DNA of 51,955 bases, from the IMG/VR virus record IMGVR_UViG_3300032218_002598, positions 1 through 51,955 of that record; one strand, written 5' to 3'. Within the stretch, counting starts at the first letter, position 1, and every line of letters starts with the position of its first letter. Shown here piece by piece: positions 10,983 to 50,821 of this stretch. The notes below the pieces were generated by a model that saw only the letters and a program-made list of their open reading frames with translations, ran no database searches and was not told the DNA's origin. The DNA comes from a virus. Lineage: Duplodnaviria > Caudoviricetes. A program made the translations under genes and the position numbers.

Positions 10983-12185
10983 TTAATAAGCATACCCGCT
11001 GCCAATAGTATTGGGATAAGTGAAATTTCTAATATTTAAACAATCAGTTATTGTTCCGTTAAAGTCCCAAATAGTCCTTCCCCCATTTGCATTTATCCTT
11101 GTAAAGTTTGCTAATACATTTTGTTTACAACCTTTAGCTAAATTAAATGATGCTCTATTAACTGAACCTGATGAGGTAAATAAAGGAGCAACAGCTCTAT
11201 AAGATGTATAACTATTAAATGCCTTATTAACTGTATAAGTTGCAGAAGAATCTAAAGTTGTTGTTGTTGTTGCTGTTGTGTTATTCATATTCAAAGTATC
11301 AACGCTAAATCCTCCTATACCTGTAAAGGTTATATTTCCTGTTAATGTCATTTGTCTTGTGGAAGTAAACAAAGAATTTAATCTTATTGTCGTATTTGTA
11401 TTTGTTGTTACCGTACCCCAATTGATTCCATTGGTATTAAATATTGTATTTGCACCTATTGCTAATGTTGCAGCTGAAGCTACATTGACAGTTCCTGCCG
11501 TATAAGTAAATGTACCATTAGCATAACCCATTGTTCCAATAGTAATAGTTCCACTTGTATTTATAACGATACTATTTTGAATACTATTATTTACATTTGT
11601 TGTACTAATGGTTCCTGTTCCTATCATATTAACAACAGTAGTTCCTATCCCTGTTGAACCAGGCTGAAAACTTCCCTTGACATAAATGTTATTACCATTC
11701 AATGTTATATTTGCAAGAAGATTAAGATTAATAGTTAAATTATCATTCAATGTACAAGTACCTGCACCATCTAATCCACCTGTAAAAGTTTTTCCATTGC
11801 TTGTAATTGACGAAGTTCCTGATAATACTATATAGCCTAAACCTCCTATAGTCATATTTGCACCAAATACTATACCTCCTGCTACTTGTAAATTAGCATT
11901 AAATGTTAGTGTTGCACTATATCCACTTCCAACAAAAAAATAAGACAAAAAAGCAGTTGTTGCACTTATCGTACTATTAGAATTAGCAGTTACCCCTGTT
12001 CCTGTAAAATATACAGAATCAGAAGTTGTAGGAGCAGCAACTCTTATAGTGCCTCCATCTGTGGCAGCCCAATTAGTAATTGGCGAAGCATTCCAATTGG
12101 CAGTAGTTCCGCCACCAACCCAATACTTTGTAGCAGCATTAGCATTAAAAGAAATTAAAAGCAATATGATAATTAACAATCTCAT
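10983..12185 (-). CDS. Beta-helix-like tail/adhesin protein with Sec signal peptide
   Basis: MRLLIIILLLISFNANA-ATKYWVGG..NW; Thr/Gly/Asn-rich; paralog of 12182..13420. Confidence 0.75.
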   Translation of the reverse strand: MRLLIIILLLISFNANAATKYWVGGGTTANWNASPITNWAATDGGTIRVAAPTTSDSVYFTGTGVTANSNSTISATTAFLSYFFVGSGYSATLTFNANLQVAGGIVFGANMTIGGLGYIVLSGTSSITSNGKTFTGGLDGAGTCTLNDNLTINLNLLANITLNGNNIYVKGSFQPGSTGIGTTVVNMIGTGTISTTNVNNSIQNSIVINTSGTITIGTMGYANGTFTYTAGTVNVASAATLAIGANTIFNTNGINWGTVTTNTNTTIRLNSLFTSTRQMTLTGNITFTGIGGFSVDTLNMNNTTATTTTTLDSSATYTVNKAFNSYTSYRAVAPLFTSSGSVNRASFNLAKGCKQNVLANFTRINANGGRTIWDFNGTITDCLNIRNFTYPNTIGSGYAY

Positions 12186-30907: not shown

Positions 30908-31320
30908 ATATATACTAATTTAATTGCGTTTTCTATATTTGATTCACTTTTATTCATTCCACATTTTATTAACCAATTAACAGCCCTTTCATTTCTTTCC
31001 CACATATAACTTTCGAAGTTGCCGTTAAATTTACTTTTTATTATTTCAAAAACCTTCTCAAGTTTTTCTTTTTTTCTAAACATTTTATTAACTCCAAAAC
31101 TTACTAGAATGTTTTTATAATTAGCCCCATACCCTACCAATATATCATCAACCATTAAATCATAAAATTCACACTCCCCAGTCTTGTCATATTCCAAAAG
31201 TTTTTCATAAATACTCTGAACTAATTCTTTCGTACTTAACTCTTTATCTTTTGGGTCGCAATATCTTGATATATCTTCATCATCCTTAAACGCATACATT
31301 ATTTTAGAATAACTTATCAT
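30898..31320 (-). CDS. GNAT-like protein
   Basis: FGV...FRK and WERNERAVNWLIKCGM; position between nozzle and ejection genes as in podoviruses. Confidence 0.6.
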   Translation of the reverse strand: MISYSKIMYAFKDDEDISRYCDPKDKELSTKELVQSIYEKLLEYDKTGECEFYDLMVDDILVGYGANYKNILVSFGVNKMFRKKEKLEKVFEIIKSKFNGNFESYMWERNERAVNWLIKCGMNKSESNIENAIKLVYICH

Positions 31321-34300
31321 CTATTTGTTAAAGGTGAATCAATATATTTCAAAGATACTATATTTAATACCACTAAGGTAGAGGGAGATATTTTACGGAA
31401 TGTTGGTATAATATACTTTCCCTTCATCGTATCTCCTCCTAGTATTCCCCCTTGTGAATTTATATCTCTTAATATTGTGGCTTCGTAACTACCTTCCAAT
31501 TGGGCAAAGTCAGAATCTACTATATTAGTAGTTTGCTTTGTTGTGCCATAGCTATTAAGGTCAGTTTCCATATTGGGGATATCCCATAATGTACTGCTTA
31601 TTTCAGATACGGCTAAGAAGGTCTTTTTCTGATAGGGATTTTCATTAAAAACGGGCGTAATTGAACTATCTGCTGTCGGGGCACCATACCAAGTATTATA
31701 TGGGGCATTGTTATGTACATATACAATCCCATCTTTAAATGACATTAAAGTAGTACCTAGTGTTACCATCATTTCTGGGTATAATGTAAGGAATGTTTCA
31801 AAGTTCCCTATTTCTTGGTCATATACGATTGTAACTTCATTATTTGTTACACTTGGGCCTAGGGCTAATATATAGTTACCTAATCTTTGGTCAAAGGCCC
31901 CTATCATAGTTCTGCCATCAATATCTCCTACTTGAGCATTTGCCCAGCTATTTACCTTATTTGTTGCAGATATAAATTCCACACCATCTTGACTTGCCCT
32001 ACAAATAGCTCCCTTAATATTTGAAGTAAAGAAATCTGCATAGTTAAAGGAAGCCAAACTTTCAGGGTTATCCCCTATCCCTACATCCCCTTGATAATAT
32101 TGGACAGGATTTAGTAGCTTATCAGATATAACCAAGTTCTCGCTATCCAAGTTTTTAACCATCTGCTGATACAAGGGCACCATTCCCACCTTTAGCTTTT
32201 GGAACACCCTCATAAACCTATCCCTAATTTTAAACCTCATTATATCTCCATAAGTATAATCGTATTGGTCAAAATCATCAAAATAAAATCTATTAAGATT
32301 ATTAGTATTTGAATTAGGTTGGTATGGCTGCCCAAAACGTACTAGTGTTGAATAGTATGCTTCTTTTGCATTTTTATCAATAATATTTGGCCTGCCACTA
32401 ATACTATTTACTGCACTTATATAACTATCTGTTACGTTTCTATCAAGTGGGAAAAAAGATAATGAAGTTAGCAAATTGTACATACTATTATATTCAAAAT
32501 ACCTTTGCCTTAAATAAATGTCCCCCTTATAAAAATTAAATTCAGCTGGTATGCCTGCTGTAAAATCTTGAACTGTAACAGAACCAAGATGAGATCTATC
32601 TGGAGTTTCTGGATTTAATACATAATATTGTTCCCCAAATTCATAATATATTATTTCATTTTTGGGTTGATTTGTTCTATATAATTGAATCATATAGTAA
32701 TACGCAGGATTAAAAGCTCCTGGTATATTAAAAACACCTTTTCTATCTACTTTTATATATGTTTTGCCTGTTGTTTGTTGCCCATTTATAAAAGGATCAG
32801 TTACAATACCAATAACCTGCGTATCATATGTTTCTGGGAATAATGTAAATGGAGCTAAATCTATTCTTTTAATAATTCTAACTCTATCCCCATCTTGGAA
32901 CGACCAACTGCATACGGCAGCTGTTGTAGGAAATGTTTCCTGTTGTAATTTTAAAAATGATAAATCAAAAAAAATATAATGTGGATCTTGTATATCTGCC
33001 TGAACAAACCAATATAAAAACTGCGTACTTTCTTGAGTAAGATAAAATTGAAAACTATGAGCCCACAAGGGTGGTCTATGATATACTTTTGCATTAATAT
33101 AAGGCAACAATACTTGCCCTGCATTATTTTCAGAGTAAGAAGGCGTACTTATTGACTCATTCCATAATATCCCATTTGTCTTACCTTTCTTATCAAAGTA
33201 TGCTATCCCTATATTTCTTTCTGTATTAAATAAAAATGTAGCAAGTGGATTATCCTGTATAGTATCTCGTGGATATTTGATAACTTCTCTACTATGTATA
33301 TATCGATTATTTTTATAATAACCTATTATAAGTGTACCTCGAGAATTGTAGCCTGTGTTAAATAGATACACTGGGACCCCCCACCCTGTCAATTGACCTG
33401 TATTATATATATTTTGAGGTATAGTCGCAGTAGTATCTGTAAGAGTAGTTGTATAAGAAACTAGTAAAGTATCACTGTTCGCTGAAGGTTTTTTTACCCA
33501 TAATTCTATTGTTGTACCAGCAGGTGGCAATCCTGTAAAATAATATTTTGTAATTGGTCGCTCAGTAAGCCCATTCATAGTACCAGTATCAAAGGGTCTT
33601 ATAGACATACTACCCAATCCAGAATTGCCTGGTCCTGCTGGTATTTTTAAAACATCAACAATAACATTGGGCGATAATATTCTATCATACCCTTCTGTTA
33701 TCGCTCCATATACCAATACATTACCATTCGCTAATTCTTGAGCCTTTGCATATGTGGGAACATAATCATAAAGCTGAACGCTTTCGTTAATATCTACGTT
33801 TGGATATGTAGAATCATTGTAAAAGTAAAATGCTATGTCAAGATTATCTACGCCATCTAAATATTCTATTTGTACACTAGAAAATAACCCTGCCGTAAGT
33901 GGATCTACGGTTATGACTAATGAATTATTATCTACTATTGCTGGAAGTGTACAATTTAATAATAAATCATTTACAAGATCAGTAATTGACCACCCTGCTT
34001 GAATAACAGAACTAGTAACTATATAAGGAGACCCAGGCAAATAGTATATTGTTACTTTTGCCCCTGGGATAGGAGTTCCAAAAAAGTTTATTCTTGTAAC
34101 TTGTACGAATGGTGGCCCTACATCTATATTAGAATATACTGTATATTCTACTTGCTTATTTAATGTTTCAATTATCTGAAAGTCGGACCAATCGTTTGTC
34201 TTATTTACATAAGACATCATTAATTCAATTCTCTTAACATCCTTATCTCCTGTATTACATTGAAGATAAATATTGTTATTATTAGATACTGTATTATAAT

Positions 34301-35606
34301 ACTCAAAATTTAATAAATTAGTAGGTATTTGCATTGTGCTTATAGGGCTACATACACTTTTAGTCAAATCATCATAAATGTACCTATACTTAAACCTAAA
34401 AAATTTATCTCTTAAATTATTAGAAACTTTTGTAGTATCATTTTTATATTGCCAGCTTGGAGGTGCCAATGGAGGTCTTTTGCATACATCAATAATATCC
34501 CTTGTTACTGGAGTATATTCTCCCAATTTGAATAATGCTATATCAAGTCCAGTTGGCCGCCCAAGTGTATCTAGGAAATATAACAAATCTCCTTCGTCCC
34601 TATTATAAATATTAACCGATGTTATTTTCTTAGTTACATCAAAGTTTAAAATATCTACCCCTCCCGTATCTACTAAGTTTTCTAATATCTTAGTAACAAG
34701 TTCTGTTTGAATATTATATTCTAATATTTGATGGTACCCTTGATTATTATGAAGAAAATATATTATTGTATTTCTTATTGTATTTGGGTATGCTCCTATA
34801 CAAGTGTACCCTGCGTTAGCTCTCCCTAGTGTTATTGTATAATAACTCCATTGGTAAGCATTAAATGGGTTTGCTATATCGTCATTGTATTCAAAATAAA
34901 AATTAGGAGGAGGGCCTGCTGCCGAGCCATTTGATATTATACCTGAAGGTAATGATACTGTATCTACCCATAAAACAACATCATCAACTCCATCTACGCC
35001 TCCAAATAAACTACCATTAAAAGTTATAAAATCAGCCCCTGCAAATGGATTCCCTGCTTTATAATTAGTACCTCCATAAAGTATAACAGAACCTGAGTAT
35101 ATATTTGAATTAAAATATAATTCAAAAGAACTACCAAATCCTACCCCTGTTGTTGAGGATGGGCTAACCGTATAAACCCCATCGGCAATAGTCCCTGTAA
35201 AAGTCCAAAGGTTTGCAACACTTATACTACTTTGCATAGCTGTTGCCAGCTCATTGCAATAATCTGTAGCAGAAAAAGATTGCGTGCTTGTATAATCTAA
35301 TACTATCCGTGGCGTAAGTGAGGGAAGCTGATTTAACTCTATTAAAGTTCTAGTTCCTGCTGAAATAACATCTGGGGATTCTATAAATATTGTTGCATTT
35401 TGATAAGTAGTTTTTACAATAGTATAGCTTGTAGTAATTACTCCAGACGCCCTATTGCCTATTACGTTTGTGATAGACCTATCATTTGATCCTGCAACAG
35501 CATCCCTAGTGATGTTCTGAGCATCTATATAGCAGTTCTTAGGTAAGATATAATAAGAATCGTCTAAGTTTAGACCCCCGCTAAAATCTGCTTTTAAATC
35601 TATCAC
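31317..35606 (-). CDS. Tail stabilization/nozzle (muzzle) protein with inserted domains
   Basis: GTG start; F.GGLN.D...Y.DA.N, F.F.YRY.YDD...S..SP, IGIAYFD..G, GIG.NPES motifs typical of crAss-like P22 gp10-type proteins. Confidence 0.8.
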   Translation of the reverse strand: MIDLKADFSGGLNLDDSYYILPKNCYIDAQNITRDAVAGSNDRSITNVIGNRASGVITTSYTIVKTTYQNATIFIESPDVISAGTRTLIELNQLPSLTPRIVLDYTSTQSFSATDYCNELATAMQSSISVANLWTFTGTIADGVYTVSPSSTTGVGFGSSFELYFNSNIYSGSVILYGGTNYKAGNPFAGADFITFNGSLFGGVDGVDDVVLWVDTVSLPSGIISNGSAAGPPPNFYFEYNDDIANPFNAYQWSYYTITLGRANAGYTCIGAYPNTIRNTIIYFLHNNQGYHQILEYNIQTELVTKILENLVDTGGVDILNFDVTKKITSVNIYNRDEGDLLYFLDTLGRPTGLDIALFKLGEYTPVTRDIIDVCKRPPLAPPSWQYKNDTTKVSNNLRDKFFRFKYRYIYDDLTKSVCSPISTMQIPTNLLNFEYYNTVSNNNNIYLQCNTGDKDVKRIELMMSYVNKTNDWSDFQIIETLNKQVEYTVYSNIDVGPPFVQVTRINFFGTPIPGAKVTIYYLPGSPYIVTSSVIQAGWSITDLVNDLLLNCTLPAIVDNNSLVITVDPLTAGLFSSVQIEYLDGVDNLDIAFYFYNDSTYPNVDINESVQLYDYVPTYAKAQELANGNVLVYGAITEGYDRILSPNVIVDVLKIPAGPGNSGLGSMSIRPFDTGTMNGLTERPITKYYFTGLPPAGTTIELWVKKPSANSDTLLVSYTTTLTDTTATIPQNIYNTGQLTGWGVPVYLFNTGYNSRGTLIIGYYKNNRYIHSREVIKYPRDTIQDNPLATFLFNTERNIGIAYFDKKGKTNGILWNESISTPSYSENNAGQVLLPYINAKVYHRPPLWAHSFQFYLTQESTQFLYWFVQADIQDPHYIFFDLSFLKLQQETFPTTAAVCSWSFQDGDRVRIIKRIDLAPFTLFPETYDTQVIGIVTDPFINGQQTTGKTYIKVDRKGVFNIPGAFNPAYYYMIQLYRTNQPKNEIIYYEFGEQYYVLNPETPDRSHLGSVTVQDFTAGIPAEFNFYKGDIYLRQRYFEYNSMYNLLTSLSFFPLDRNVTDSYISAVNSISGRPNIIDKNAKEAYYSTLVRFGQPYQPNSNTNNLNRFYFDDFDQYDYTYGDIMRFKIRDRFMRVFQKLKVGMVPLYQQMVKNLDSENLVISDKLLNPVQYYQGDVGIGDNPESLASFNYADFFTSNIKGAICRASQDGVEFISATNKVNSWANAQVGDIDGRTMIGAFDQRLGNYILALGPSVTNNEVTIVYDQEIGNFETFLTLYPEMMVTLGTTLMSFKDGIVYVHNNAPYNTWYGAPTADSSITPVFNENPYQKKTFLAVSEISSTLWDIPNMETDLNSYGTTKQTTNIVDSDFAQLEGSYEATILRDINSQGGILGGDTMKGKYIIPTFRKISPSTLVVLNIVSLKYIDSPLTNR

Positions 35607-35626
35607 TTTCTTTTATTTATTTTAAA

Positions 35627-35752
35627 GAGTGCCGTTAATATAAGGGGAACTGTGTCTTATATATAATTCCCACTAAGAGATTAATACCTTATTGGCCACA
35701 CCCCAAAGGGCACGGCCACTTATGCACAACTCCCCTTTTATTAACCGCACTC
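35627..35752 (-). ncRNA. Putative 126-nt Y-shaped (three-way junction) structured RNA
   Basis: 26-bp closing stem, 11-bp and about 10-bp arms, seven G-U pairs that form only on the minus strand, AUAAG in all three junction linkers. Confidence 0.75.
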
Positions 35753-35755
35753 ATA

Positions 35756-36625
35756 TTATTTAAAAACTGGTCTATAATATCTACTATTAACCTGATTTAC
35801 CATATATACTTCTGTTGGATTAGTTGAACCATCTACAGAATGCAATATAGAGAAAATTGGGTCAGACATTGGTCCAAAAATCTTAGGGCATAACCCATTA
35901 GCTTTTGTTGCGTTTGGATTATCAATCCCAACAGCAAAGGCATAACTAGTAACTTTCGCAAATAAATTATCCTTTACCATCCTACGATTTGTCCCTGCTA
36001 AGTTTTGCAATAAAGTAGCATTCGAGCCATTTATCCTTGATGTTAAGCTATAATTAGCCCCTGAAAAAATATTGGTATCATGCTGAGTAACCGTATAAGC
36101 AGGAGCAGCCGTATTATCTAGTTCAGTCCAAAACATATATTCATTAAAGCCTGTCAAAGAAAATTTCTCATATGGCTTAATAGTGCCTGGTAATGCCCAT
36201 TCTGTAGTTCTTGTGTTTACAATAACACCATCTCTTAGAAATTGTTGCCCTGAAAAAAACTTCCATCCTGCCCATTTTGTTACAGAATCTATAGTTGTAG
36301 GATGCACATATCTTGCTTTTTTCTTTCTAGCAACCTGTAAAGATGTAAGAAGGTCTATAACTCTTGACCTTCTTTTACCCCTATATCTAAATAAAAACAA
36401 TTCTGGGTTCCCAACAGCAAAGTCATATCCTGAATCTGCAAAGTGAGCTGTAAGGCCTGTAGACTTATACCAAGACATTATTGGAGCTGGAGGTAAAACT
36501 AATTGGCTATCAATCATATCTACAAGAGTACCACCTACTCTAAGTGCTGTATTTTCGCCAGCAACAGTAGCATTTTTTACTAAATTTGCTTCTATTAAAA
36601 GTTGATCTGTAGGTATTATAGCCAT
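35756..36625 (-). CDS. Tail-fibre-anchor domain fused to a basic domain
   Basis: N-terminal VKNATVAGENTALRVGG..L.DMIDS; then LFRYRGKRRSR...ARKKKARYVHP..KWAGW. Confidence 0.75.
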   Translation of the reverse strand: MAIIPTDQLLIEANLVKNATVAGENTALRVGGTLVDMIDSQLVLPPAPIMSWYKSTGLTAHFADSGYDFAVGNPELFLFRYRGKRRSRVIDLLTSLQVARKKKARYVHPTTIDSVTKWAGWKFFSGQQFLRDGVIVNTRTTEWALPGTIKPYEKFSLTGFNEYMFWTELDNTAAPAYTVTQHDTNIFSGANYSLTSRINGSNATLLQNLAGTNRRMVKDNLFAKVTSYAFAVGIDNPNATKANGLCPKIFGPMSDPIFSILHSVDGSTNPTEVYMVNQVNSRYYRPVFK

Positions 36626-36633
36626 ATAATTAT

Positions 36634-36936
36634 TTATTCAAAAGTGTAATCGAATGTGTAATCGAATATTTTATTCAAAATGTTATCAATAGTACTAAAA
36701 ATATTGTGTTCATCAACGAAAAAATACTGAATATTGTCGTTAAAAAAACTTGCGTTTGTAGGAAGCAATTGAAATAACACTACATCCCCAATAGAATGTC
36801 CCATTGTTGCATTATTAACCTGCTGTATAACCCCATAAAAATGATTCCTATCAAGAGGAGGGGTATTATAGTTAGCATATCCCCCTGGGGACATAGTAAT
36901 TAGAACAATAGGATATTGTAGGTTAAGGTTTATCAT
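36634..36936 (-). CDS. Divergent GroES-fold protein with FDYTFDYTFE tail
   Basis: GVI..V......IGDVVLF...YFFVDE.NI resembles the GroES C-terminal half. Confidence 0.55.
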   Translation of the reverse strand: MINLNLQYPIVLITMSPGGYANYNTPPLDRNHFYGVIQQVNNATMGHSIGDVVLFQLLPTNASFFNDNIQYFFVDEHNIFSTIDNILNKIFDYTFDYTFE

Positions 36937-37706
36937 TATGCTTTAACTGTTAACCGAGTGTTTTCAAGGTTTAACTGATAAGCTACTTCAGTAGTAAACG
37001 GCTTATATCTTGCATAGGCAAGTCTACGTTCATTAAAGTATTCGTGTCTGCGGTCTCTTTTATCCCCTAGAGCACCCCTTCTTGAAGTAGGAATACTTCT
37101 TATGTCCTTCCAAGCTAAGTAGGCTATAACTGCCTCTCTGAATTGAATAGGGACAAATATGGTTTGGTCTTGGTCGGGAGCTTGTAAATACTCAAGGATA
37201 ATATAGGCATAAGGGAATGTCTCGCTAAGTAAGATAACTCCATTCTGAGAATCAACCTTAAAGCTCCCTACAAATGGCTGCCCACTAGGAACACCATATA
37301 AATTACCATAAGCAAATCCGTCCCAATAGTTAAAGTAAACATTTCCACCTCCTACGCTTGTATTTAGTAGGGTATTGTCTTGTGTACGATTTAACCTATC
37401 AGGGAACAAGTCTGCATATGTAGTCAGCTTGTTATTCTGATAAAGAGGTATTATTTCTCCTCTGCCATTAAGTACTCCTGCCTTTACTATTTGTAGGCAA
37501 TTGGCAGGGATATCTACTGTATAATTTGCGTTTACAGGGAGCTTCTGTGTTTGTATTTGATAAAAGAAGTCCAAGCCTAATTCATCACAAGCCCTATAGG
37601 CAAGTTGAGTTAGTTTGAACTGCTTTTGAATACCTTGCTCACTTTCATCCATATAAGCTGCAACGCATTCATTAACGTCTATATATTGCAAATGTGGGGT
37701 ACCCAT
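36936..37706 (-). CDS. Tail ring/tubular protein
   Basis: 256 aa; IILEY...P..F.EA..AY..WK; synteny upstream of nozzle. Confidence 0.65.
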   Translation of the reverse strand: MGTPHLQYIDVNECVAAYMDESEQGIQKQFKLTQLAYRACDELGLDFFYQIQTQKLPVNANYTVDIPANCLQIVKAGVLNGRGEIIPLYQNNKLTTYADLFPDRLNRTQDNTLLNTSVGGGNVYFNYWDGFAYGNLYGVPSGQPFVGSFKVDSQNGVILLSETFPYAYIILEYLQAPDQDQTIFVPIQFREAVIAYLAWKDIRSIPTSRRGALGDKRDRRHEYFNERRLAYARYKPFTTEVAYQLNLENTRLTVKA

Positions 37707-37712
37707 ATTTTA

Positions 37713-37985
37713 TTAATTTTCTTCTGTAGCTAATATAGCATTTTCGTCAATCAAATAATACTTATTTCCTTCAAATTCTAATTCTTGTCCTGCATTTTGT
37801 ATTCTGTATGCTATTGATCCTGGCTTTAATCTCATTGGCCTCTTGGGAGTCCCATCTCCTACAGCTATTATCTCTACCTTACATCCGTCTTTTCTTACAG
37901 ATTCAGGAACTATAATACCTCCATAAGACATAGCATCTTCCTTAAAGGCCTTGAATAACACATTGTTTCTAATTGGCTTTATCAT
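37713..37985 (-). CDS. groES: Co-chaperonin GroES-like protein
   Basis: IKPI.N.VL, GGIIVP, IAVGDG, LKPG, EG.KY.LI.E..ILA. Confidence 0.88.
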   Translation of the reverse strand: MIKPIRNNVLFKAFKEDAMSYGGIIVPESVRKDGCKVEIIAVGDGTPKRPMRLKPGSIAYRIQNAGQELEFEGNKYYLIDENAILATEEN

Positions 37986-37990
37986 TATTT

Positions 37991-38626
37991 TTAGTTTGAA
38001 ACTCCGTCATTTGTAATATCCTGTGGTACCTGCCTCATAGCCATTAATGCCTTTACAACATACTCCACGATAAGTGGAATAATATCTTCTGGTGCATTTA
38101 AAGTGCTATTAAGATCAGTTGTTGAATTGTTTCCTGCGCCTCCCCCACTTACTAAGGTTATATTCGCTGTGTATTGATTAAGCAATAAAGAAGATAGTAT
38201 AAATAGCTTATCTCCCTCATAGTAGTATAGGAACCTATTGGGGATTCTTTTCATAGTGAACTGATACCCCTTTTGGTTTATGCTTAGAGGGATTCCGTCA
38301 ATCCCCTCATTATTATCCTTTACTAGCCTTACATCTGCTACAGCATCATTTCTTCCTATTGCAAGAGGTACTGAAGGTAATTGAACCTTCCATAAAAGAT
38401 TTTGATCCTGTACTATAGGTATATTCTTATATGTAGAGTAAAAGCTATTGTTTATATAGCTTACCCCATCTATTTGTAGACTCTCTTTATATTGATTGTG
38501 TACTGCTAAAGCAAGTCCTTGGTTTATGTATTGATTAACCAAGTTGGGAGTAATAGTACTATCGTCCCTCGGCTGGTCCCCATATACCGCCCTAAGTATT
38601 TGCTCTATTAATTGATATCTTGTCAT
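37991..38626 (-). CDS. Tail ring/adaptor protein
   Basis: 211 aa, C-terminal QVPQDITNDG; crAss-like synteny. Confidence 0.65.
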   Translation of the reverse strand: MTRYQLIEQILRAVYGDQPRDDSTITPNLVNQYINQGLALAVHNQYKESLQIDGVSYINNSFYSTYKNIPIVQDQNLLWKVQLPSVPLAIGRNDAVADVRLVKDNNEGIDGIPLSINQKGYQFTMKRIPNRFLYYYEGDKLFILSSLLLNQYTANITLVSGGGAGNNSTTDLNSTLNAPEDIIPLIVEYVVKALMAMRQVPQDITNDGVSN

Positions 38627-38635
38627 TTATTTGTT

Positions 38636-39556
38636 TTATGAATATACTCTTATTTCTATTGGGGTGTTTTGCAATGCATTATCGCCATTAAGTGCTAAAA
38701 TTTCCATCATATTAGGTGGAGCTGGGAGCGTTATTGACGCACCTGAATCACCACCACCCGTAAAGTCTGTGGTTCCTATTAAAGCAAAAGTTTTTTCATT
38801 AATAAAAAGCCCATTAGAATTTATATTATAATCACCACCTACATAATAAGTAAACCAAACATTCCCAATAGTATTCTCTAATACTGTTACTACTGGCGCT
38901 CCAGTGTTGTAATCTAATCTTATGTCTCCTGATGTAACAATTACTCCATCTTTTGTTGAAACAAAAAATGTTCCTACAGTATTATTAGGTGAACCAAATT
39001 CAGTAAAATCAAAATTTGCATCATTTATTGTTATTTCATAAGTTATTCCTTTATAAATATTTTCATCACCAACAATATAACTTGGTGCATCCCCACCATT
39101 CTGTGTTAATAAAGCTGTATACACTTTATATCCCCCTATATTTGAATTATCAATTAAATCATTGATATTTCCTGATACAAGGTAAGTATTACCCTTAAAT
39201 GTTATTGTAGAAACTCCCATTCCTGCTTCTTGTATGCCAATCCCATTTACAGGGAAAGCATAAAGCCTAGGTGCAGGTATGGGATTTTGGTTGATTTCTA
39301 GGACGCTAACCTGTACTAACGAAGTACCTGCAAGTCCCATAATAGTATTAAAACTATCTGCACAATACAATGATGTATACGCTAATTGATTTGATGTATT
39401 GCTATACCATTGAATAACCGTAGAAGCCCCTGAATATACTGGGTTATCTATTTCATATACTAATATATCTGAAGTTAATACTGACTTGTGAGCTGACATC
39501 TTTAGAGGACTGCCATCTATATAAAGTACTTGTTGTAGGTCTAACTGATTTGCCAT
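38636..39556 (-). CDS. Mosaic virion protein
   Basis: Two short N-terminal repeats plus YKVYTALLTQ...VLENTIG...IEIRVY C-terminal domain with nested insert. Confidence 0.7.
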   Translation of the reverse strand: MANQLDLQQVLYIDGSPLKMSAHKSVLTSDILVYEIDNPVYSGASTVIQWYSNTSNQLAYTSLYCADSFNTIMGLAGTSLVQVSVLEINQNPIPAPRLYAFPVNGIGIQEAGMGVSTITFKGNTYLVSGNINDLIDNSNIGGYKVYTALLTQNGGDAPSYIVGDENIYKGITYEITINDANFDFTEFGSPNNTVGTFFVSTKDGVIVTSGDIRLDYNTGAPVVTVLENTIGNVWFTYYVGGDYNINSNGLFINEKTFALIGTTDFTGGGDSGASITLPAPPNMMEILALNGDNALQNTPIEIRVYS

Positions 39557-39578
39557 TTTTATTTTATTTTATTTTATT

Positions 39579-40568
39579 TTATTGCCCTTGCTTTTTAATA
39601 TCGTTTGCGTATTGGATAATATTTTGTGATTGAAGATTAACTCCCACCATTACCAATGCTCTAGAAATTACATCAAGCATAGTTGTATCCCCCCATAGAG
39701 GTTGTACACTTGCCTGATTAATAGTTAATGTAATAGTCCCATCAAATAAGTTAAATGGAGTAATTGTAAGTGGGCTACTTGATGTTGCATAACCACTATA
39801 TGTTATAGTACCACTCCCTGCAAAAAAAGTAAGCCCCCCAAATTCAACCTTTACATAACTATTGGGTGGTATTGCTCCTGTTATTGTAACTGATATATTA
39901 TAATACAATTCCTGAACGGAACTAAATGCTCCTACTAATGGAGCTGTTCCAGCAGCAGTTGTATGGGTGTACCCTGTTGAAAATGATGTACCTGTCCATC
40001 CTGTACCCGAACCTGTTGTGGCTATCTGAGGTCCCACTTCACTATAAACAGGCCTTCCATTCCCATCTAAAGTATATGCCCAAATAACATTTGGTGCATT
40101 TCTTACATAACTTAATTTAGCTGAACCTATATTGATAGGGTAAAATTGAAACCCTGCTTCTTTTAATAAGTATATTGGATTTTGGGCTACGGGATCTATT
40201 TGGCTATTGTAAAAAGAATACAATTTGTCTTGCTCTACCTCCCTAACTCTATCGAAGTTAGCCCCATAATACATCGCATCTGCTAAAACATAATCAGATG
40301 GATATGCTACTGTTCCCTGATTATTTATTGTCAAATTACTTTCAACAATAAAGGGGGATAGTATTTGCCTTAAAGTTAGGCTTCCTCCTAATTCAACAGG
40401 TGCCACAGGCCTCCCATATTGATACTTTTGCAGACTCCCTATAAGATAAGAAATATAACTCCTCTGTGCTTGATTTATTATATTATTAAAATCAGCAGGG
40501 CTAAGATAACCCTGCTGATTCTTATTTAAGATATACTGCATCAACACATATGTGTCGTTTACGTTCAT
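39579..40568 (-). CDS. Head-tail adaptor/ring protein with inserted beta domain
   Basis: ILNKNQQGYLSP.DFN..INQAQ N-terminus; Thr/Gly-rich insert between GRPVY and VQPLW. Confidence 0.7.
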   Translation of the reverse strand: MNVNDTYVLMQYILNKNQQGYLSPADFNNIINQAQRSYISYLIGSLQKYQYGRPVAPVELGGSLTLRQILSPFIVESNLTINNQGTVAYPSDYVLADAMYYGANFDRVREVEQDKLYSFYNSQIDPVAQNPIYLLKEAGFQFYPINIGSAKLSYVRNAPNVIWAYTLDGNGRPVYSEVGPQIATTGSGTGWTGTSFSTGYTHTTAAGTAPLVGAFSSVQELYYNISVTITGAIPPNSYVKVEFGGLTFFAGSGTITYSGYATSSSPLTITPFNLFDGTITLTINQASVQPLWGDTTMLDVISRALVMVGVNLQSQNIIQYANDIKKQGQ

Positions 40569-40575
40569 CTATTTT

Positions 40576-41442
40576 CTATTTTGATATGCTTTTCAATTTA
40601 CTTAAAAACTCTCGTCCTTCAGTTGTATTGGTCATAGCTAATTCTGTCAGTTGTTTTACTGGGTTCATTTTAGAAGCCATCTTAGTGATGAAACCTCCAG
40701 ATCCCCAATAAGCTGAACCAGGCTGTTTTGCTATATCAATCTGGTTACTTATAATGGCTGACTTAATCTGCCAATGAATCTCTACTTCCTGAACATTATC
40801 AACCATTGCTTGGAATACTGTTGAATTTTTCTTAGCATAAAGCATTACTTCTTGCCTTAATGCGCTTTCTGGCTTTACTTGAGCTAACTCGTTTACAAGG
40901 TGAACCCCTATAAAACTTGCATACTTTTTTAAAGTATCAGAGTCCATCTCTTTAGCTTTGATTGCCATCTCTAATTCAAGCATTTCCTTCTTCAATGATT
41001 CTTCAGCTTGTTTAGCTGGATCATATTCAAAGAATTCAAATCTTGGTGCTCTCAGTCTGTTTTTAACCTCTAGGTTAGAATTGCACATTCTTGCAAATTC
41101 CAGAGCAGCGGTGTCCATTTTATTGATTCTACAAATACGCGCCTTAAATTCCAAAGATCTCCTGTTATTTCGGATATACTCTTTATCAATATCCTTTTGA
41201 TCTGACATCCATATTGAGCTAACTCCTGTAAGTAATCTAATCCTCTCAGCCTTCCCTGTCTTAGGATTTAATACATCATCAGTTCCATCAATATAAACAC
41301 CTTTTTTTTGATTCCCTTTCAGCTTGAAAATTACGAATTGATTTCCAACTGAACCATAAGAATTATGAATATCTACTACAACATTTTCAGATTCTTGTCT
41401 AGAGATACCCATTGCGCCTTCTACATCTGCAATACTTGCCAT
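40576..41442 (-). CDS. Conserved crAss-like protein downstream of capsid gene
   Basis: SIW...Q, FFEYDP...AE, LR...M.YAK.N...F pattern; synteny. Confidence 0.65.
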   Translation of the reverse strand: MASIADVEGAMGISRQESENVVVDIHNSYGSVGNQFVIFKLKGNQKKGVYIDGTDDVLNPKTGKAERIRLLTGVSSIWMSDQKDIDKEYIRNNRRSLEFKARICRINKMDTAALEFARMCNSNLEVKNRLRAPRFEFFEYDPAKQAEESLKKEMLELEMAIKAKEMDSDTLKKYASFIGVHLVNELAQVKPESALRQEVMLYAKKNSTVFQAMVDNVQEVEIHWQIKSAIISNQIDIAKQPGSAYWGSGGFITKMASKMNPVKQLTELAMTNTTEGREFLSKLKSISK

Positions 41443-41461: not shown

Positions 41462-42364
41462 TTAAAATACCCCCACTGCGGTGGGATTGTTAATAAATAG
41501 ATCTTTATAAATAAATATGTGCCCAGATCTTATAGGCTTCATATTGTTGTAACAAGAAGCTCTTATTATAGTTGTCTTTGGAATTTTTAAACTTTTTGAG
41601 GCTTCCATAGCTGAAGGGTATTCAATGATTTTTTTATCATTAATATAAAGTACTGGCCTTTTAACGTTTGCTTTATTTATTTTTTTTATGGATATTTTTT
41701 GAGGTATTTTATATTTTTTATACCTAAAAACAAACCCAAAAGCATTAGTTTTTTTGCCAGAACAAACATCACATATTTGTGATGCTCTCTTTATCCCACA
41801 ACCCAATGCAGCTGCGGTTGCTGACTCATACTCCTTTATAAATTCTCCATTCGAATTATAACAAAGAACTGGTCTCATTACTTTTTTTCTGCCTTTCTCG
41901 ACTCCCCATTCTGGAACCTTTCTGCCATCTTTTAAATTTCTTTCAGATGCAGCTTTTGACATGATTTTTCTAGTTTCTTCCGAATGTTTTTTACCATAAA
42001 ATGGATTACCTTCTTTAGAAAACTTTTCTGATTGCTCCTTTCTTCTTTTTGTATCTTTTATCCAAGAACTTCTTTGCCCCTCACCTCCCAAAGTCATATT
42101 CATTCCTTGTGGATTTGATTGATAATATGTATTAAATTTTTCAATCCAATACATTTCTCTTTCATTCATCAACCCATCCTCAATTTCTTCAATGACTTCT
42201 AACTTGTGTAAGTCCCATCCATACTTTCTAATACTATTATATAAAATATGTTTGAAACCTTTTTTAGAATGTGATTTGTGGCCATTAATTCTTTTTCTAA
42301 GACAATAGGTTTTACCTATATAAATCTTATTATTTGGATTCGTTATTTTATAAATAAACCCCAT
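41462..42364 (-). CDS. Free-standing GIY-YIG homing endonuclease with NUMOD3/NUMOD1 modules
   Basis: FIYKITN..NKIYIG, N.T.GGEG, NPFYGKKHSEET, FIKEY.S...AA twice. Confidence 0.92.
   Translation of the reverse strand: MGFIYKITNPNNKIYIGKTYCLRKRINGHKSHSKKGFKHILYNSIRKYGWDLHKLEVIEEIEDGLMNEREMYWIEKFNTYYQSNPQGMNMTLGGEGQRSSWIKDTKRRKEQSEKFSKEGNPFYGKKHSEETRKIMSKAASERNLKDGRKVPEWGVEKGRKKVMRPVLCYNSNGEFIKEYESATAAALGCGIKRASQICDVCSGKKTNAFGFVFRYKKYKIPQKISIKKINKANVKRPVLYINDKKIIEYPSAMEASKSLKIPKTTIIRASCYNNMKPIRSGHIFIYKDLFINNPTAVGVF
41463..41487 (-). terminator. Terminator overlapped by the endonuclease 3' end
   Basis: Minus strand TCCCAC-CGCA-GTGGGG-GTATTTT. Confidence 0.6.
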
Positions 42365-45336: not shown

Positions 45337-48231
45337 TTATACTCCTATTAATGTTACAGTGTTGTTTGCTTGTAAATATGTTATATCACAATCTATCGAA
45401 TATATAGGAGGTGGGAAAACATCTCTACAATTAGCTATACAGCAACATTCAGTTGTAGCAAGTGAATTAGAAACTGTTAATGTTATTGTATTACCTGTTA
45501 TATTATCAAACATATCACTATTATTACATGTATATGGATAACCTAAATTAATACAGCTTGGTATATAGATTGTTTGTATAGATAAGTTATTTTGGAACCC
45601 AAGTTCTTCAATGGTTTCCATTTTATCTAAATAGGCTGTTGTTAAACTAAAACAACCTTGAAATGATCCAGCTTTTGCATAAGTTACACCAAGTAAATAA
45701 GCTGATGTGATAATACAAGCTCCAAAACAATTGCCCCCAAGAGCTGTAATACAACCATTTGCATCTATTATCTCTACTAAATTAGTTTTCCAATCTACTA
45801 TTTCATATAAGGTTACATCAGCACCACCATATAGGTAAACACTACTGCCTACAGTTACAGATGTAAAAGGAACTGCTGGCCCTATATGAGGAAACCCAAA
45901 TAAAGTATTCCATTGAGTTACATCTGTAGGATCTACAACAGGATATGAGCCATTAAACTTTAACACTAATGGTATTGACACTGTGTTATTATGTATTAAT
46001 GTTGTTATATCAGCATCTGGGTGATGACTACCACCGCAATCCATTACATATGGAGAAACTATTAAAGATATAGTCTGCCCAGTGATCCCATTAAATACAT
46101 CATTACCATGACAACCATCACCAATAGCTGTACATACAGGGATTGATAGATATGTTAAAGAGAAACAATTTTCAAAACACTCATTCCCAACTGTTATTAA
46201 ACTTGGTAAATCAACTGTTGTTAGAGATGTACAACCTAGGAAACAATAATCACCAGCATTTATTAGATTTGGTAATGATATTGTTGTTGATGATGAACAA
46301 TTATAGAAACAACTAGCACCAGCAGTTGTTAAATTTGGTAATGATATTGATGTTAGAGATGTACAACTTTGGAAACAAGCACCACCAGCAGTTGTTAGAC
46401 TTGGTAATGATATTGTTGTTAGAGATGTACAACTTACGAAACAAGCACCACCAGCAGTTGTTAGACTTGGTAAGTCTATTGATGTTAGAGATGTACAACT
46501 TCCAAAACAATCATTACCAGCAGTTGTTAGATTTTGTAATGATATTGATGATAGAGATATACAACTTGCGAAACAATCATTACCAGCAGTTGTTAGAAGT
46601 GGTAAATTTACTGATGATAGAGCTGTACAACTTTCAAAACAACCATCACCAGCAGTTGTTAGACTTGGTAAGTCTATTGATGTTAGAGATGTACAACTTC
46701 CAAAACAACCATTACCAGCAGCTATTATACAATTTGATTGATTGTCTAATATTTGTTGTATTGTAGATCCATTAAATAAATCATTCTTTAATGTTATTCC
46801 AAGACCCCCAAATAAATAAGTGATAGAAGGACTACCGCTTACATAATATACAGATGTAAAAGGAGTTCCATTTGTAGGTAGGTAAAATAATTTATTCCAA
46901 TCATCAACATTACTTGGATCACCAACTATACCATCTCCCATTATCCTTAATGGGAATAATACAGTGTTATTAGCTATTAGATATTGAAGATCCCCATCTG
47001 GAAGTCCTACATTACAAGTAAGTAGAGCATCAGGAACAATCACTGTAATAGTTTGCCCTGTTATCCCAAAAAATACATCATTATTTCCTACGGACCCTCC
47101 TAAATTAGTACATAATGGTATTGATAGTGATGTTAGGGATGTACAATTTGAGAAAAATCCATAACCAATAGTTGTTATAATTGGGAACTCTACTGTTGTT
47201 AAAGATGTACAACTTGTAAAACAATCATTACCAGCTGTTTCTAAAATCGGTAATGATATTGATGATAGATTTGTACAATTACTAAAACACTCTCCACCCA
47301 TAATAGTCACAAGTGGCAAATCTACTGTTGCTAAATTTGTACATGAATAGAAGCAATAATTGTTAATGACTGTTAGAGCAGGTAATGATACTGTTGTTAG
47401 AGATGTACAACTTCGGAAACAACCACCCCCAGCAGTTTCTAGAAGTGGTAAATCTACTGATGTTAGAGATATACAATACCCAAAACAATCATCACCAGCA
47501 GTTGTTAAACTTGGTAGTGATATTGAAGTTAAAGATGAGCAATAATTAAAACACTGAAGACTAGCTGTTGTTAGAAGTGGTAATGATACTGATGCTAAAG
47601 ATGTACACCCAATAAAACAATTATCCCCAGCACTTATTAGATTTGGGAAATCTATTGAATCTAGTAAATAACAATTCCAAAATGTATATTCACCTAAAGT
47701 TGTTATAGAGCTAAATGGTAATGTTAAACCACTACTTGGAAGAATAGTACATTCAAAAAAAGTTGTAGCTGCTATAGTGGAACATGATGGTAGATATACA
47801 TAGTATAAGTTAAAACATCCTCCAAAAACACCAAAACTTATACTTATATTATCATTAAGTGTTTGTGTTACATTAGGACACGATATTCTTTCTAAATTAG
47901 ATTGTTCAAGAGGTCCACCAAAGGTTTGATCTCCTAAAGTGATAATACAACCAGCATCATCATTGAATTCTAATAAATGTATATTGTCTGAAAATAGGTT
48001 GGCTTTAGTTTCAATATTAGCCCCACCATATAATTTCACCTCATTACCAACTATTTCAACTGATGTAAAAGGAGTCCCATATGTAGGGAGGTCAAAATAT
48101 GTGTTCCAAGCTGCTAAGTCATTTGCTGTTACAGGTGTATTGGCTATATCATCCCATAGAAGTCTTAATCCAGGGGATGCAGGGGGCGTAATAAAGTCCT
48201 TATTCGTAAATTGTAAATACTGTGCTATCAT
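45337..48231 (-). CDS. BspA-type leucine-rich repeat protein fused to N-terminal peptide of paralog copy 4
   Basis: MIAQYLQFT start; three capped solenoids (WN..F..P...PFTSV...YGG to D.D...L..NNTV) of 22-aa CTSLTSISLPSLTTAG..CF repeats. Confidence 0.88.
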   Translation of the reverse strand: MIAQYLQFTNKDFITPPASPGLRLLWDDIANTPVTANDLAAWNTYFDLPTYGTPFTSVEIVGNEVKLYGGANIETKANLFSDNIHLLEFNDDAGCIITLGDQTFGGPLEQSNLERISCPNVTQTLNDNISISFGVFGGCFNLYYVYLPSCSTIAATTFFECTILPSSGLTLPFSSITTLGEYTFWNCYLLDSIDFPNLISAGDNCFIGCTSLASVSLPLLTTASLQCFNYCSSLTSISLPSLTTAGDDCFGYCISLTSVDLPLLETAGGGCFRSCTSLTTVSLPALTVINNYCFYSCTNLATVDLPLVTIMGGECFSNCTNLSSISLPILETAGNDCFTSCTSLTTVEFPIITTIGYGFFSNCTSLTSLSIPLCTNLGGSVGNNDVFFGITGQTITVIVPDALLTCNVGLPDGDLQYLIANNTVLFPLRIMGDGIVGDPSNVDDWNKLFYLPTNGTPFTSVYYVSGSPSITYLFGGLGITLKNDLFNGSTIQQILDNQSNCIIAAGNGCFGSCTSLTSIDLPSLTTAGDGCFESCTALSSVNLPLLTTAGNDCFASCISLSSISLQNLTTAGNDCFGSCTSLTSIDLPSLTTAGGACFVSCTSLTTISLPSLTTAGGACFQSCTSLTSISLPNLTTAGASCFYNCSSSTTISLPNLINAGDYCFLGCTSLTTVDLPSLITVGNECFENCFSLTYLSIPVCTAIGDGCHGNDVFNGITGQTISLIVSPYVMDCGGSHHPDADITTLIHNNTVSIPLVLKFNGSYPVVDPTDVTQWNTLFGFPHIGPAVPFTSVTVGSSVYLYGGADVTLYEIVDWKTNLVEIIDANGCITALGGNCFGACIITSAYLLGVTYAKAGSFQGCFSLTTAYLDKMETIEELGFQNNLSIQTIYIPSCINLGYPYTCNNSDMFDNITGNTITLTVSNSLATTECCCIANCRDVFPPPIYSIDCDITYLQANNTVTLIGV
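46190..47660 (-). repeat. Two arrays of 66-nt coding tandem repeats (approx. 46190-46720 and 47130-47660)
   Basis: Recurring ACCAGCAGTTGTTAGACTTGGTAA...TGTTAGAGATGTACAACT with 66-nt period. Confidence 0.9.
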
Positions 48232-48232
48232 A

Positions 48233-48532
48233 TTACCCTATTTTAGCTAACATTACTAATACTTTACTAGCTCTGCCATTTATAATTACATATCTTCCTA
48301 CAACATCAATTCTATATATACCATCTTGATTCGTATATTGAACTAATGAATTATCAGAAATTTTTGTAGTTGATACACCATAATAATGATCATATTGACT
48401 AAAAGAAGAAATAAACACTAAATCTGAAATACCAATTGCTTGTATTAAACAATAGTCATAATTACTTGCATCTATAATAGCAAGATCAGTTGTGTTCAAT
48501 TCTTTTGTTACATCTAAATACTGCGCTATCAT
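48233..48532 (-). CDS. Small paralog copy 3 (intact; putative capsid decoration protein)
   Basis: MIAQYLD...SNYDYCLIQ...VVGRYV...VLVMLAKIG. Confidence 0.8.
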   Translation of the reverse strand: MIAQYLDVTKELNTTDLAIIDASNYDYCLIQAIGISDLVFISSFSQYDHYYGVSTTKISDNSLVQYTNQDGIYRIDVVGRYVIINGRASKVLVMLAKIG

Positions 48533-48533
48533 A

Positions 48534-48734
48534 TTATCCTATTTTAGATAACATTATTAATACTTTACAATCTGGCGGGAATTGAAACCCATCAGCTGTT
48601 TCTATTCTAATATATTTCCCAACCACATCAAATTTAAAAGAACCATCTTCATTAGTTTCAGATACATTATCATTGTTTGATATGTTAGTAGCTGATGTTA
48701 AACTAAAATTATCGGCTGGTAATAATACATCCAT
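48534..48734 (-). CDS. C-terminal part of small paralog copy 2
   Basis: ADNF...SAT...VVGKYIRI...VLIMLSKIG. Confidence 0.75.
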   Translation of the reverse strand: MDVLLPADNFSLTSATNISNNDNVSETNEDGSFKFDVVGKYIRIETADGFQFPPDCKVLIMLSKIG

Positions 48735-48752
48735 TTTTTTTAATTTTAATTT

Positions 48753-50477: not shown

Positions 50478-50821
50478 TACCCTATTTTAGTCATCATTAT
50501 CAATAACCCCGTAGCTGTAGCAGCTCCTGTCAATTTGATATATCTTCCTACTACTCCTAATCTAACAGGTACATTATCTGCTGCTGTAGTTGTAAATACC
50601 CCATCTATCAATTTAGTACCCCCTGAAGTTGTAAAATTAGTGGCAGTTGTTGGGCTATCATCTTGAACACCCTCTATAGCTCCCCCATCTATTGTCGCTA
50701 ATATACTAACAGAAGTGCCCAATGGCTGTATAACACAATAATCATAGTTGCTTACTTCAAAAACAACTTCACCTCCGTTTGTGTTAAACTCACCTGTTAA
50801 ATCTAAATACTGTGCTAACAT
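50477..50821 (-). CDS. Small paralog copy 1 (intact; putative capsid decoration protein)
   Basis: MLAQYLD...SNYDYCVIQ...TIDGGAIEGV.D...VVGRYIKL...MMTKIG; between portal and scaffold. Confidence 0.8.
   Translation of the reverse strand: MLAQYLDLTGEFNTNGGEVVFEVSNYDYCVIQPLGTSVSILATIDGGAIEGVQDDSPTTATNFTTSGGTKLIDGVFTTTAADNVPVRLGVVGRYIKLTGAATATGLLIMMTKIG

Follow-up and report, generated by a model that had tools for sequence, protein, structure and literature searches.

In phi29-type phages, a pRNA of ~120 nucleotides (nt) with a three-way-junction core is bound by basic residues of the connector at the head-tail junction; this pRNA functions in the packaging motor, has its gene away from that of the protein it binds to and oligomerizes by loop-loop pairing. 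The MS2 and PP7 coat proteins use a β-sheet surface to bind an RNA hairpin adjacent to where the downstream cistron begins, and thereby repress this cistron. Simple stable hairpins directly after an inserted accessory gene also occur in phage operons, as intercistronic stabilizing hairpins or as part of morons with their own terminator, and in many tailspikes enzymes are mounted on fiber anchors. With respect to fiber attachment, the tail hub of crAss001 (THA gp38 and THB gp39) docks residues 1 to 26 of the trimeric fiber gp22 (PMC10172136). Here, we describe a locus where a putative fiber anchor, its proposed docking peptide and a structured RNA lie side by side. It is located in IMG/VR record IMGVR_UViG_3300032218_002598, a complete virus record of 51,955 bases (completeness estimate 98%) that was analyzed at its full length and is referred to as the window. 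The window phage is a 52-kb podophage and a distant relative of crAss-like phages.

The sequence-only reading had taken 35756-36936 (minus strand) as one gene encoding a fiber-anchor protein with a putative RNA-binding domain. The region and its features are real, whereas the coordinates cover two open reading frames (ORFs), 36634-36936 (100 amino acids, aa) and 35756-36625 (289 aa), with the following features:

36634 to 36936, minus strand: adaptor gene encoding a small β-rich protein of 100 aa with the last residues KIFDYTFDYTFE (from the ORF and its sequence).
36637 to 36666, minus strand: sequence encoding the C-terminal FDYTFDYTFE peptide that would act as docking strand, with aromatic residues alternating with D, T or E.
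36491 to 36625, minus strand: N-terminal anchor module, residues 1-45 of the 289-aa protein, referred to as type A (L..EA..[IV][KR]N[AE]T....NTA.R[VI]G..L.D).
35756 to 36490, minus strand: head domain, residues 46-289 and the stop codon, a predicted basic, aromatic-rich β-sandwich of an unannotated family (family alignment and AlphaFold2 model).
36302 to 36388, minus strand: basic β-hairpin region of the head, residues 80-108, RYRGKRRSRVIDLLTSLQVARKKKARYVH (K/R counts, strands modeled at high confidence).
35627 to 35752, minus strand: structured element of 126 nt on the sense strand, folding as a three-way junction.

The 289-aa ORF opens with MAIIPTDQLLIEANLVKNATVAGENTALRVGG and starts 8 nt past the stop codon of the adaptor gene, whose ATG in turn overlaps the stop codon of the upstream ring-like gene (TAATG). 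All strings quoted in the sequence-only reading (KNATVAGENTALRVGG, LFRYRGKRRSR, ARKKKARYVHP, KWAGWKFF and RTTEW) are found in the 289-aa translation.

The adaptor ends in ...NKIFDYTFDYTFE, i.e. in an FDYTFDYTFE tail. A tail of the form FD[YF]TFD[YF]TFE is present in seven of eight relatives of the 100-aa protein, the eighth being a divergent or partial sequence of 86 aa, and six-frame translation of the window revealed exactly one FD tail motif and exactly one type-A anchor motif. No Pfam family matched the adaptor at E ≤ 0.1. Assignment as a GroES/Cpn10 protein was considered and rejected (phrog_3188 at E 0.09, no Pfam match at E ≤ 0.1), and comparison with the GroES-like protein encoded in the window itself gave an hhalign probability of 11% over 17 columns. 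Likeness of the adaptor to the head-closure protein of locus L034 is limited to the last 43 columns, which correspond to the tail region.

An alignment of type-A modules from 14 clusters (A4) contains the invariant residues L9, A13, N25, T26, A27, R29, G31 and D36, and the 289-aa protein carries the motif [KR]N[AE]T-x4-NTA-x-R[VI]G within its first ~35 residues. A tblastn search of residues 1-50 against deposited phages returned nine weak matches (E 0.3-5), eight of which sit at codon 3 of Cellulophaga siphophage genes annotated as 'tail fiber protein'. Residues ~1-45 of the window protein resemble the extreme starts of phi12:1 gp50 and phi18:1 gp52. In phi12:1 gp50 the type-A module is followed by collagen repeats and, judged only from these repeats, the anchor is probably trimeric.

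Pairing of tail and anchor was tested in both directions in IMG/VR using back-translated motifs, and the figures below apply among the matches listed. The N-terminal pattern yielded at least 115 matches, with 110 of the 115 listed located within 30 residues of a start. Type-A proteins are 177-2470 aa long, and collagen, GDSL esterase, β-helix and LamG are among the bodies attached to the module. Going from anchor to tail, 106 anchors had an upstream ORF, and 74 of these ORFs end in FDx[ST]FDx[ST]F. A tail of the '...R.HIHAIGD' type was found at the end of 28 of the remaining 32, and three of three such proteins tested were DUF6712 proteins. In the opposite direction, the FDxTFDxTF pattern gave at least 111 matches in at least 110 IMG/VR loci. 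The motif lies within 12 residues of the stop in 76 of 111 cases, 65 of which are followed by an ORF of 80 aa or more. That next ORF starts with NTA.R[VI]G for 22 of the 65 C-terminal FD tails compared with 1 of 25 for motifs elsewhere in the protein. Two points of the sequence-only reading, namely that the first ~45 residues mark the start of Bacteroidota phage fibers and that FDYTFDYTFE-type tails precede such genes, are thus borne out by the resemblance to phi12:1 gp50 and phi18:1 gp52 and by these counts.

All tail-bearing proteins that could be assigned are neck proteins, with the head-completion/closure family PF05521 found in phi12:1, L034 and L048. In L146, a DUF6712 gene directly follows a portal-annotated gene in the head module, and DUF6712 may thus act as an adaptor at the neck of phages of Bacteroidota; a literature search for DUF6712 found no paper. 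In L146 (8760-12587), L145 and L140, DUF6712 proteins ending in ...R.HIHAIGD precede long type-A fibers.

Within the family of the head domain, FD tails are present in all three type-A lineages with upstream sequence (the window, L013 and L001/L010). In two lineages that carry an 'MPSYIELDK' start instead and have genomic context, the upstream gene ends in ...GSGIIT or ...GSGIIE and has no FD tail. Tail and anchor thus change together, since 'MPSYIELDK' anchors come after GSGIIT or GSGIIE tails and not after FD tails. The L004 lineage has neither an FD tail nor a GSGIIT/E tail.

The reading as docking peptide and anchor is well supported by this co-occurrence, from which we consider it highly probable that FD tail and type-A anchor are a docking pair and that the 289-aa protein is an appendage of the virion. 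Some observations weigh against it. Pairing counts are inflated by a single family, as 63 of the 115 listed matches begin with MSVQ; these are proteins of 184-188 aa, and about 30 different N-terminal starts remain represented. The FD peptide is not the sole partner of the anchor because 28 of the 106 listed anchors follow the second, '..IHAIGD'-type tail. FD tails are also found on proteins of 345-400 aa that are followed by unrelated proteins of 82-92 aa. Docking, trimerization and presence in the virion, like the ligand, are what we infer from gene order and sequence. A predicted complex of three copies of anchor residues 1-60 with three adaptors scored 0.23 against a mark of 0.32 in a run that had no controls and is evidence neither way. 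A search with the N-terminal region among longer proteins found nothing, which is weak evidence.

Two further settings of the FD motif were seen in IMG/VR. In loci such as L025, L028, L032, L052 and L091, many proteins of 345-400 aa end in FDNTFDNTFN or a close variant, and the next gene encodes a conserved 82-92-aa protein (MRRTAYHLTEVL... or METIRRNLALADMDIR...) and no type-A fiber. In loci such as L035, L039, L049 and L096, FDxTFDxTF is internal and followed by ...GIYLRWI[ND]RHG; these proteins precede proteins of 600-950 aa that start with MRNELLY... or M.DQQLYIDG... and are probably tail proteins of another phage group.

The head domain that the anchor would carry belongs to a family of its own. 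A word-indexed search with the 289-aa protein gave 22 homologs at E ≤ 1e-3, and 46 representative clusters among 1.84 billion were found at the same threshold. No Pfam or PHROG family matched the protein, and tblastn of its entire sequence against 50,697 deposited phage records gave no match. Searching genome contigs with alignment A1 revealed no prokaryotic homolog or locus. In viral contigs, no related loci were obtained with P0006, with alignment A2 or with the ring-like protein of 256 aa, and P0005 added no further loci. The conserved part of the head spans about residues 46 to 260 with 35 invariant columns in 23 sequences, and its motifs are NPELFLFR, HP.T...KW.GWKFF.G, R.TEW, FN.YMF and DNP.AT..NGLCPKIF. 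Residues 80-108 contain 7-11 K/R and 0-2 D/E in 23 of 23 aligned members and the core has a pI of 9.1-9.8; the earlier proposal that a basic, aromatic head replaces the fiber shaft is confirmed. N-termini vary: 14 clusters have type A, many others start with 'MPSYIELDK...' and further types occur as well; P0010 is a direct fusion of DUF6712 and head. Neighbors in 'MPSYIELDK' loci are fiber-like or structural. A 140-kb phage (L002, 5914-7818; the same phage as L003 and L011) carries two tandem head paralogs of 281 and about 293 aa.

An AlphaFold2 (AF2) model of residues 44-289 based on 60 sequences reached a predicted local distance difference test (pLDDT) score of 92.4 and a predicted template modeling (pTM) score of 0.88. 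The best VIA rows are FN3/Ig-like with Z 4.0-5.1 and a root-mean-square deviation of 3-4 Å over ~80-120 of 246 residues, values within the noise range of the tool; the top 50 rows include four DNA-binding Ig-like domains of the Rel-homology type, again within noise (Z 4.0-4.4). VIA matches of the full model are dominated by the N-terminal helices. Foldseek found no match at E ≤ 1e-3 in PDB and BFVD for the full model or in PDB for the core model, and a PDB sequence search with the head gave no match below E 0.007. Language-model neighbors of the head come from pyocin-knob and tail-fiber-tip clusters at weak scores (0.81-0.87), which is a lead only. The head appears to be a new basic elaboration of a β-sandwich, tentatively Ig/FN3-like, that phages have mounted on different anchors; although confidently modeled, its family is unannotated and has no close structural relative.

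RNA binding by the head, as the sequence-only reading had put forward, would be a tentative proposal: the basic and aromatic character is present, whereas Pfam, PHROG, PDB sequence, VIA and Foldseek searches matched none of the known RNA-binding folds and families (RRM, KH, OB, dsRBD, coat protein). The invariant polar residues in 23 sequences (H108, C246, D235, N236, E75, E142, R80, R139, K117, K248 and S254) would also suit an enzyme (for example an esterase, a lyase or a peptidase) that is held by a fiber anchor and attacks a polymer of the host surface; the RNA would then serve some unrelated regulation. The same anchor carries a GDSL esterase in L146, and phi18:1 gp52 has an SGNH annotation. 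However, no enzyme family or fold was matched, the core of the fold is tentatively Ig/FN3-like and the co-occurrence of gene and RNA would be left unexplained, so that we regard an enzymatic head as improbable.

The 289-aa gene is followed by a 149-nt spacer whose 126-nt core (35627-35752) consists of a long closing stem and two hairpins. For a 154-nt stretch the minimum free energy is -58.3 kcal/mol, with none of 200 shuffles as good (z -6.8, or -8.1 in a second estimate), and the element represents the most stable 150-nt segment of the 51,955-base record (minus strand -53.7; mean -25.6, s.d. 6.8; plus strand -42.1). The window element folds at -57.4 with seven G-U pairs on the sense strand and at -45.4 on the antisense strand. 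Each helix of the junction is followed by AUAAG, with ATAAG at 30, 61 and 93 of a 133-nt stretch. The 126-nt RNA noted in the sequence-only reading is thus real as a structure, and none of 200 shuffles was as stable. Its label as a Y RNA should be dropped: Rfam gave no match at gathering score in the window, and at E ≤ 10 the only match in 35400-36000 was a PyrG leader (E 7.1). No TROVE (Ro60) protein was found among the 17 window ORFs scanned against Pfam. Readings as an integron attC-like site or a diversity-generating retroelement were dropped by eye, as no RYYYAAC/GTTRRRY cores were seen; template repeat and reverse transcriptase were not searched for.

A scan of 31000-41000 for intrinsic terminators found no site at 35607-35755. 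The closing stem is followed by TTTAAAATAAA and there is no clear U-tract (TTTAAAA); T-runs are present in three of five other elements, and the elements may have a partial terminator role. With ring gene and adaptor gene overlapping at stop and start codon, and with only 20 nt separating the element from the GTG start codon of the muzzle gene downstream, the element is better regarded as intercistronic than as a full terminator. Contigs of four DNA runs were read for variants. Among the variants listed, two lake or sediment runs contain single-base insertions behind 35667 (junction) and 35724 (second hairpin), and a TATTTT insertion was found behind 35753 at the 5' edge of the element, which tolerates changes at these sites. 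The 20 runs from 10 studies listed for the phage sequence include no RNA run from which expression could be read.

Flanking DNA was available for five lineages of the head family (window/L009, L001/L010, L002, L005 and L004/L012/L014). In three of these, the top-ranked 150-nt segment of the locus lies directly 3' of the head gene, with z of about -4.2 to -5.0 for window/L009, -5.9 and -5.3 for L001/L010 and -4.2 for L002. The second tandem paralog of L002 has its own element (rank 4, z -2.7), the L005 element is weaker (rank 5, z -2.6) and none follows the head gene in L004/L012/L014. At 19 control loci, where type-A fiber genes carry other heads, downstream z ranged from -1.2 to +0.6 and no comparable structure was found (0/19). 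The co-occurrence check proposed in the sequence-only reading thus came out positive, with a sense-strand structure after the head gene in four of five lineages. The sense strand gives the more stable fold in each of the six elements, the margin being 4.7-13.3 kcal/mol and the number of G-U pairs 4-8 compared with 0-4, which points to RNA rather than a DNA palindrome. Every element fills the intergenic space and ends 12-20 nt before the next start codon. The sense-strand structured RNA has stayed with the head gene, and not with the anchor, through deep divergence.

The elements have no sequence in common and no Rfam match, and their architectures are only loosely alike. In four of six, a short word occurs three times at 31-32-nt spacing (TTCTA at 27/59/91 in L010, GGATA at 21/53/85 in L001, TTATGGG at 7/39/71 and TCCCTTA at 35/67/99 in L002b), the repeats being alike within an element and different between lineages. 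A clean 32-nt repeat is missing from L002a and L005, where hairpins are more numerous. When the window element was shuffled 2000 times, a triple 5-mer arose in 630 cases and is thus common by chance; only the regular spacing, recurring across lineages, is notable. The hairpin words were not found elsewhere in the 140-kb and 40-kb records. In G003, the 40,101-base record of L001, the same hairpin pair occurs at 47-91 and 39956-40000, i.e. at both ends, which indicates that the ends of this contig overlap and that the genome, although classed as linear, is circular or terminally redundant. A search of 1.97 Mb for stem-closed multi-hairpin elements with an absolute threshold gave 337 matches and did not discriminate. 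It was uninformative because matches were driven by G+C-rich loci, and within-locus z-scores are the usable control.

Co-occurrence of gene and RNA fits both a ribonucleoprotein and a gene-specific cis-acting element. In the former case, the anchored, probably trimeric head would bind the adjacent three-way junction, each subunit contacting one unit of helix and linker. Three roles of the RNA are conceivable: an assembly scaffold that gathers three new chains, located at the usual site of fiber-chaperone genes; an operator that controls translation of the cistron behind it, similar to that of the MS2 coat protein; or a component carried on the particle, similar to phi29 pRNA on the connector. 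Such a complex is favored by the position of the most stable segment directly after the head gene in window/L009, L001/L010 and L002 and, more weakly, in L005, by the absence of anything comparable behind the 19 other heads and by the sense-strand preference of all six elements. The triple repeats in four of six are what would be expected if a nearby-encoded homo-oligomer reads them, the hairpin motifs are restricted to these sites in the 140-kb and 40-kb records, and a β-strand-borne K/R patch with conserved aromatics is present in 23 of 23 members. Against it stand the missing match to any known RNA-binding family or fold, the lack of common sequence among elements, the absence of a clean 32-nt repeat in L002a and L005 and of any element in L004/L012/L014, the small basis of five lineages, the frequency of triple 5-mers in shuffles and the trimer, which is itself an inference. 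Nor does conservation between close relatives help: the window and L009 elements show 0 of 133 differences and the adjoining muzzle gene only 7 in 600 nt, so this identity reflects a shared block extending into the muzzle gene and not constraint specific to the element. We regard a ribonucleoprotein as a tentative option. The same doubtful standing applies to its most specific version, where a homotrimeric knob reads a pseudo-threefold RNA from the 3' untranslated stretch of its own gene and protein and RNA co-evolve in each lineage, the RNA of which would act as trimer template, operator of the next cistron or neck-carried component.

The cassette is flanked by genes with structural PHROG matches and by muzzle, ring-2-like and GroES-like genes, and its immediate neighbors are:

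36936 to 37706, minus strand: upstream neighbor, a 256-aa ring-like tail protein (phrog_13977 at E 1.3e-8; phi38:1 gp096 by BLASTP at E 8e-6).
31317 to 35606, minus strand: downstream neighbor, a 1429-aa muzzle protein (PF25729 crAss_MUZ_C at E 6.4e-8; phrog_14478 at E 3.1e-45).

The homolog of the ring-like protein in Cellulophaga phage phi38:1, gp096, is a virion structural protein, and a ring-2-like protein is encoded nearby (PF25702 at E 1e-5, slightly below the Pfam cut-off). A tblastn search with the muzzle protein placed Cellulophaga phi38:1, phi40:1 and Calle, together with Flavobacterium elemoA podophages, nearest among cultured phages, at 24-28% identity to structural proteins of these podophages. 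Ring-like and muzzle genes directly adjoin in phi38:1, elemoA and crAss001, from which it follows that adaptor gene, 289-aa gene and RNA element have been inserted into a conserved operon of tail genes.

Insertion between genes that adjoin in relatives would also be expected of a selfish or regulatory cassette that is not part of the virion and encodes a nucleic-acid-binding protein with its own site or terminator, similar to a moron or a free-standing homing gene. The basic character of the protein, the GIY-YIG endonuclease gene in the same structural module and the four Rel-homology rows among the top 50 (Z 4.0-4.4, within noise) point the same way. However, the N-terminal module is common to collagen- and enzyme-bearing fibers and paired with the tails of neck proteins, P0010 fuses the head to DUF6712, translational coupling of the adaptor to the ring gene leaves no room for a separate promoter and the G-U pairs on the sense strand speak against a DNA site. 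This explanation is quite unlikely in our view.

Our preferred reading is that a podophage of Flavobacteriia-type hosts has acquired an accessory cassette, made up of both genes and the RNA element, at the site where its last ring-like tail gene would otherwise meet the muzzle gene. The 289-aa protein would be a short, shaftless knob on the virion. Its residues 1-45 would be a widespread anchor that fixes fibers to the particle via the C-terminal FDx[ST]FDx[ST]F of a protein encoded upstream, and the 100-aa adaptor would supply this peptide in the window phage. The head may bind a polyanion, with an anionic host-envelope polymer as the narrow first choice and aid in adsorption as the result; for a fiber-anchored domain, a host-envelope ligand is the conservative reading. 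The 126-nt RNA, co-inherited with the head gene, may be a cis-acting element of the same transcript that either stabilizes the upstream cistrons or damps the muzzle cistron. As a whole, this package of a virion knob binding an anionic host-envelope polymer and a cis-acting intercistronic RNA is a reasonable candidate which we would place somewhat short of an even chance. A host-surface ligand has no positive support beyond architecture, and a K/R-dense hairpin is unusual for receptor-binding tips. Likewise, a plain cis stabilizer does not explain why 0 of 19 control loci have an element, why each tandem paralog in L002 is followed by its own, or why four elements contain lineage-specific triple repeats at 31-32-nt spacing.

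Several other features of the window were recorded. A GroES/Cpn10 homolog (PF00166 at E 4e-14) is encoded at 37713-37985 (minus strand) between the ring-2-like and ring-like tail genes, and the GIY-YIG/NUMOD homing-endonuclease-like gene lies at 41462-42364 (minus strand; Pfam E 1.4e-10). At 45337-50821 (minus strand), four neighboring ORFs start with a common MIAQYLD/MLAQYLD motif (964 aa with BspA-type leucine-rich repeats, 99 aa, 574 aa with Fib_succ_major, and 114 aa), and the short ORFs of this cluster, including a 66-aa ORF in between, end in ...LVMLAKI[GS]. By its appearance, the cluster may provide this phage with another plug-in set of interchangeable heads. Two tandem paralogs of 400 and 412 aa at 10983-13420 (minus strand) have signal-peptide-like starts and the common motif ...KYW[VI]GGGT.ANW.ASP.TNWAATDGGT.RVAAP.

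In conclusion, FD tail and type-A anchor apparently represent a widespread unannotated plug-and-socket for mounting fibers, with the tail pattern found in at least 110 IMG/VR loci. The pairing is unannotated in the phi12:1 and phi18:1 records and our searches found no paper on it. If true, it would help to annotate neck and tail appendages and could serve for head swapping. A literature search for three-way-junction RNAs tied to tail fibers found nothing relevant and, as far as our searches went, the pairing of a head gene with a large three-armed RNA on the sense strand is undescribed. A structural RNA or dedicated operator tied to a fiber-like protein of a DNA phage would, if true, represent a new kind of phage ribonucleoprotein, and a homotrimeric knob with its RNA would be a portable module plugged into different Bacteroidota phages via interchangeable anchors.

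Compared with known RNA systems, the window element has a three-way junction in common with phi29 pRNA and gave no match to the Rfam pRNA model. MS2 and PP7 differ in the fold of the protein, in using a single hairpin that includes the start codon and in being RNA phages, with repression only proposed for the window. Unlike simple intercistronic hairpins, the element is 126 nt long and branched, consists of three repeated units and has no clear U-tract and, unlike a moron, the cassette has no promoter space of its own. With respect to crAss001, a short N-terminal segment of a trimeric fiber is held by small hub proteins on the ring barrel (PMC10172136), much as proposed for the window phage, and the window cassette occupies the equivalent ring/muzzle module. 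By eye, the translated start of crAss001 gp22 (MFFTQEDYRKIEKWLL...) does not carry the type-A motif, nor does the C-terminus of THB carry an FD tail, and there is no gene between R1 (gp43) and the muzzle (gp44), where the window has its cassette. Closest are the gene pairs gp49/gp50 of phi12:1 and gp51/gp52 of phi18:1, where the fiber starts with the same module (MGLIERSEQIKNETTQGANTAERVGGVLVD compared with ...LVKNATVAGENTALRVGGTLVD in the window) and the preceding gene, encoding the head-closure protein Hc1 (gp49) in phi12:1 and gp51 in phi18:1, has FxFTFDxTF near the C-terminus (FGFTFDATF in phi12:1). The phi12:1 motif is followed by about 20 more residues whereas the FD tail of the window is terminal, and what follows the module is a collagen shaft ending in a large distal domain in phi12:1 but a 245-aa knob in the window. 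The partner in phi12:1 is the head-closure protein of a siphophage, while in the window it would be a dedicated 100-aa protein of a podophage.

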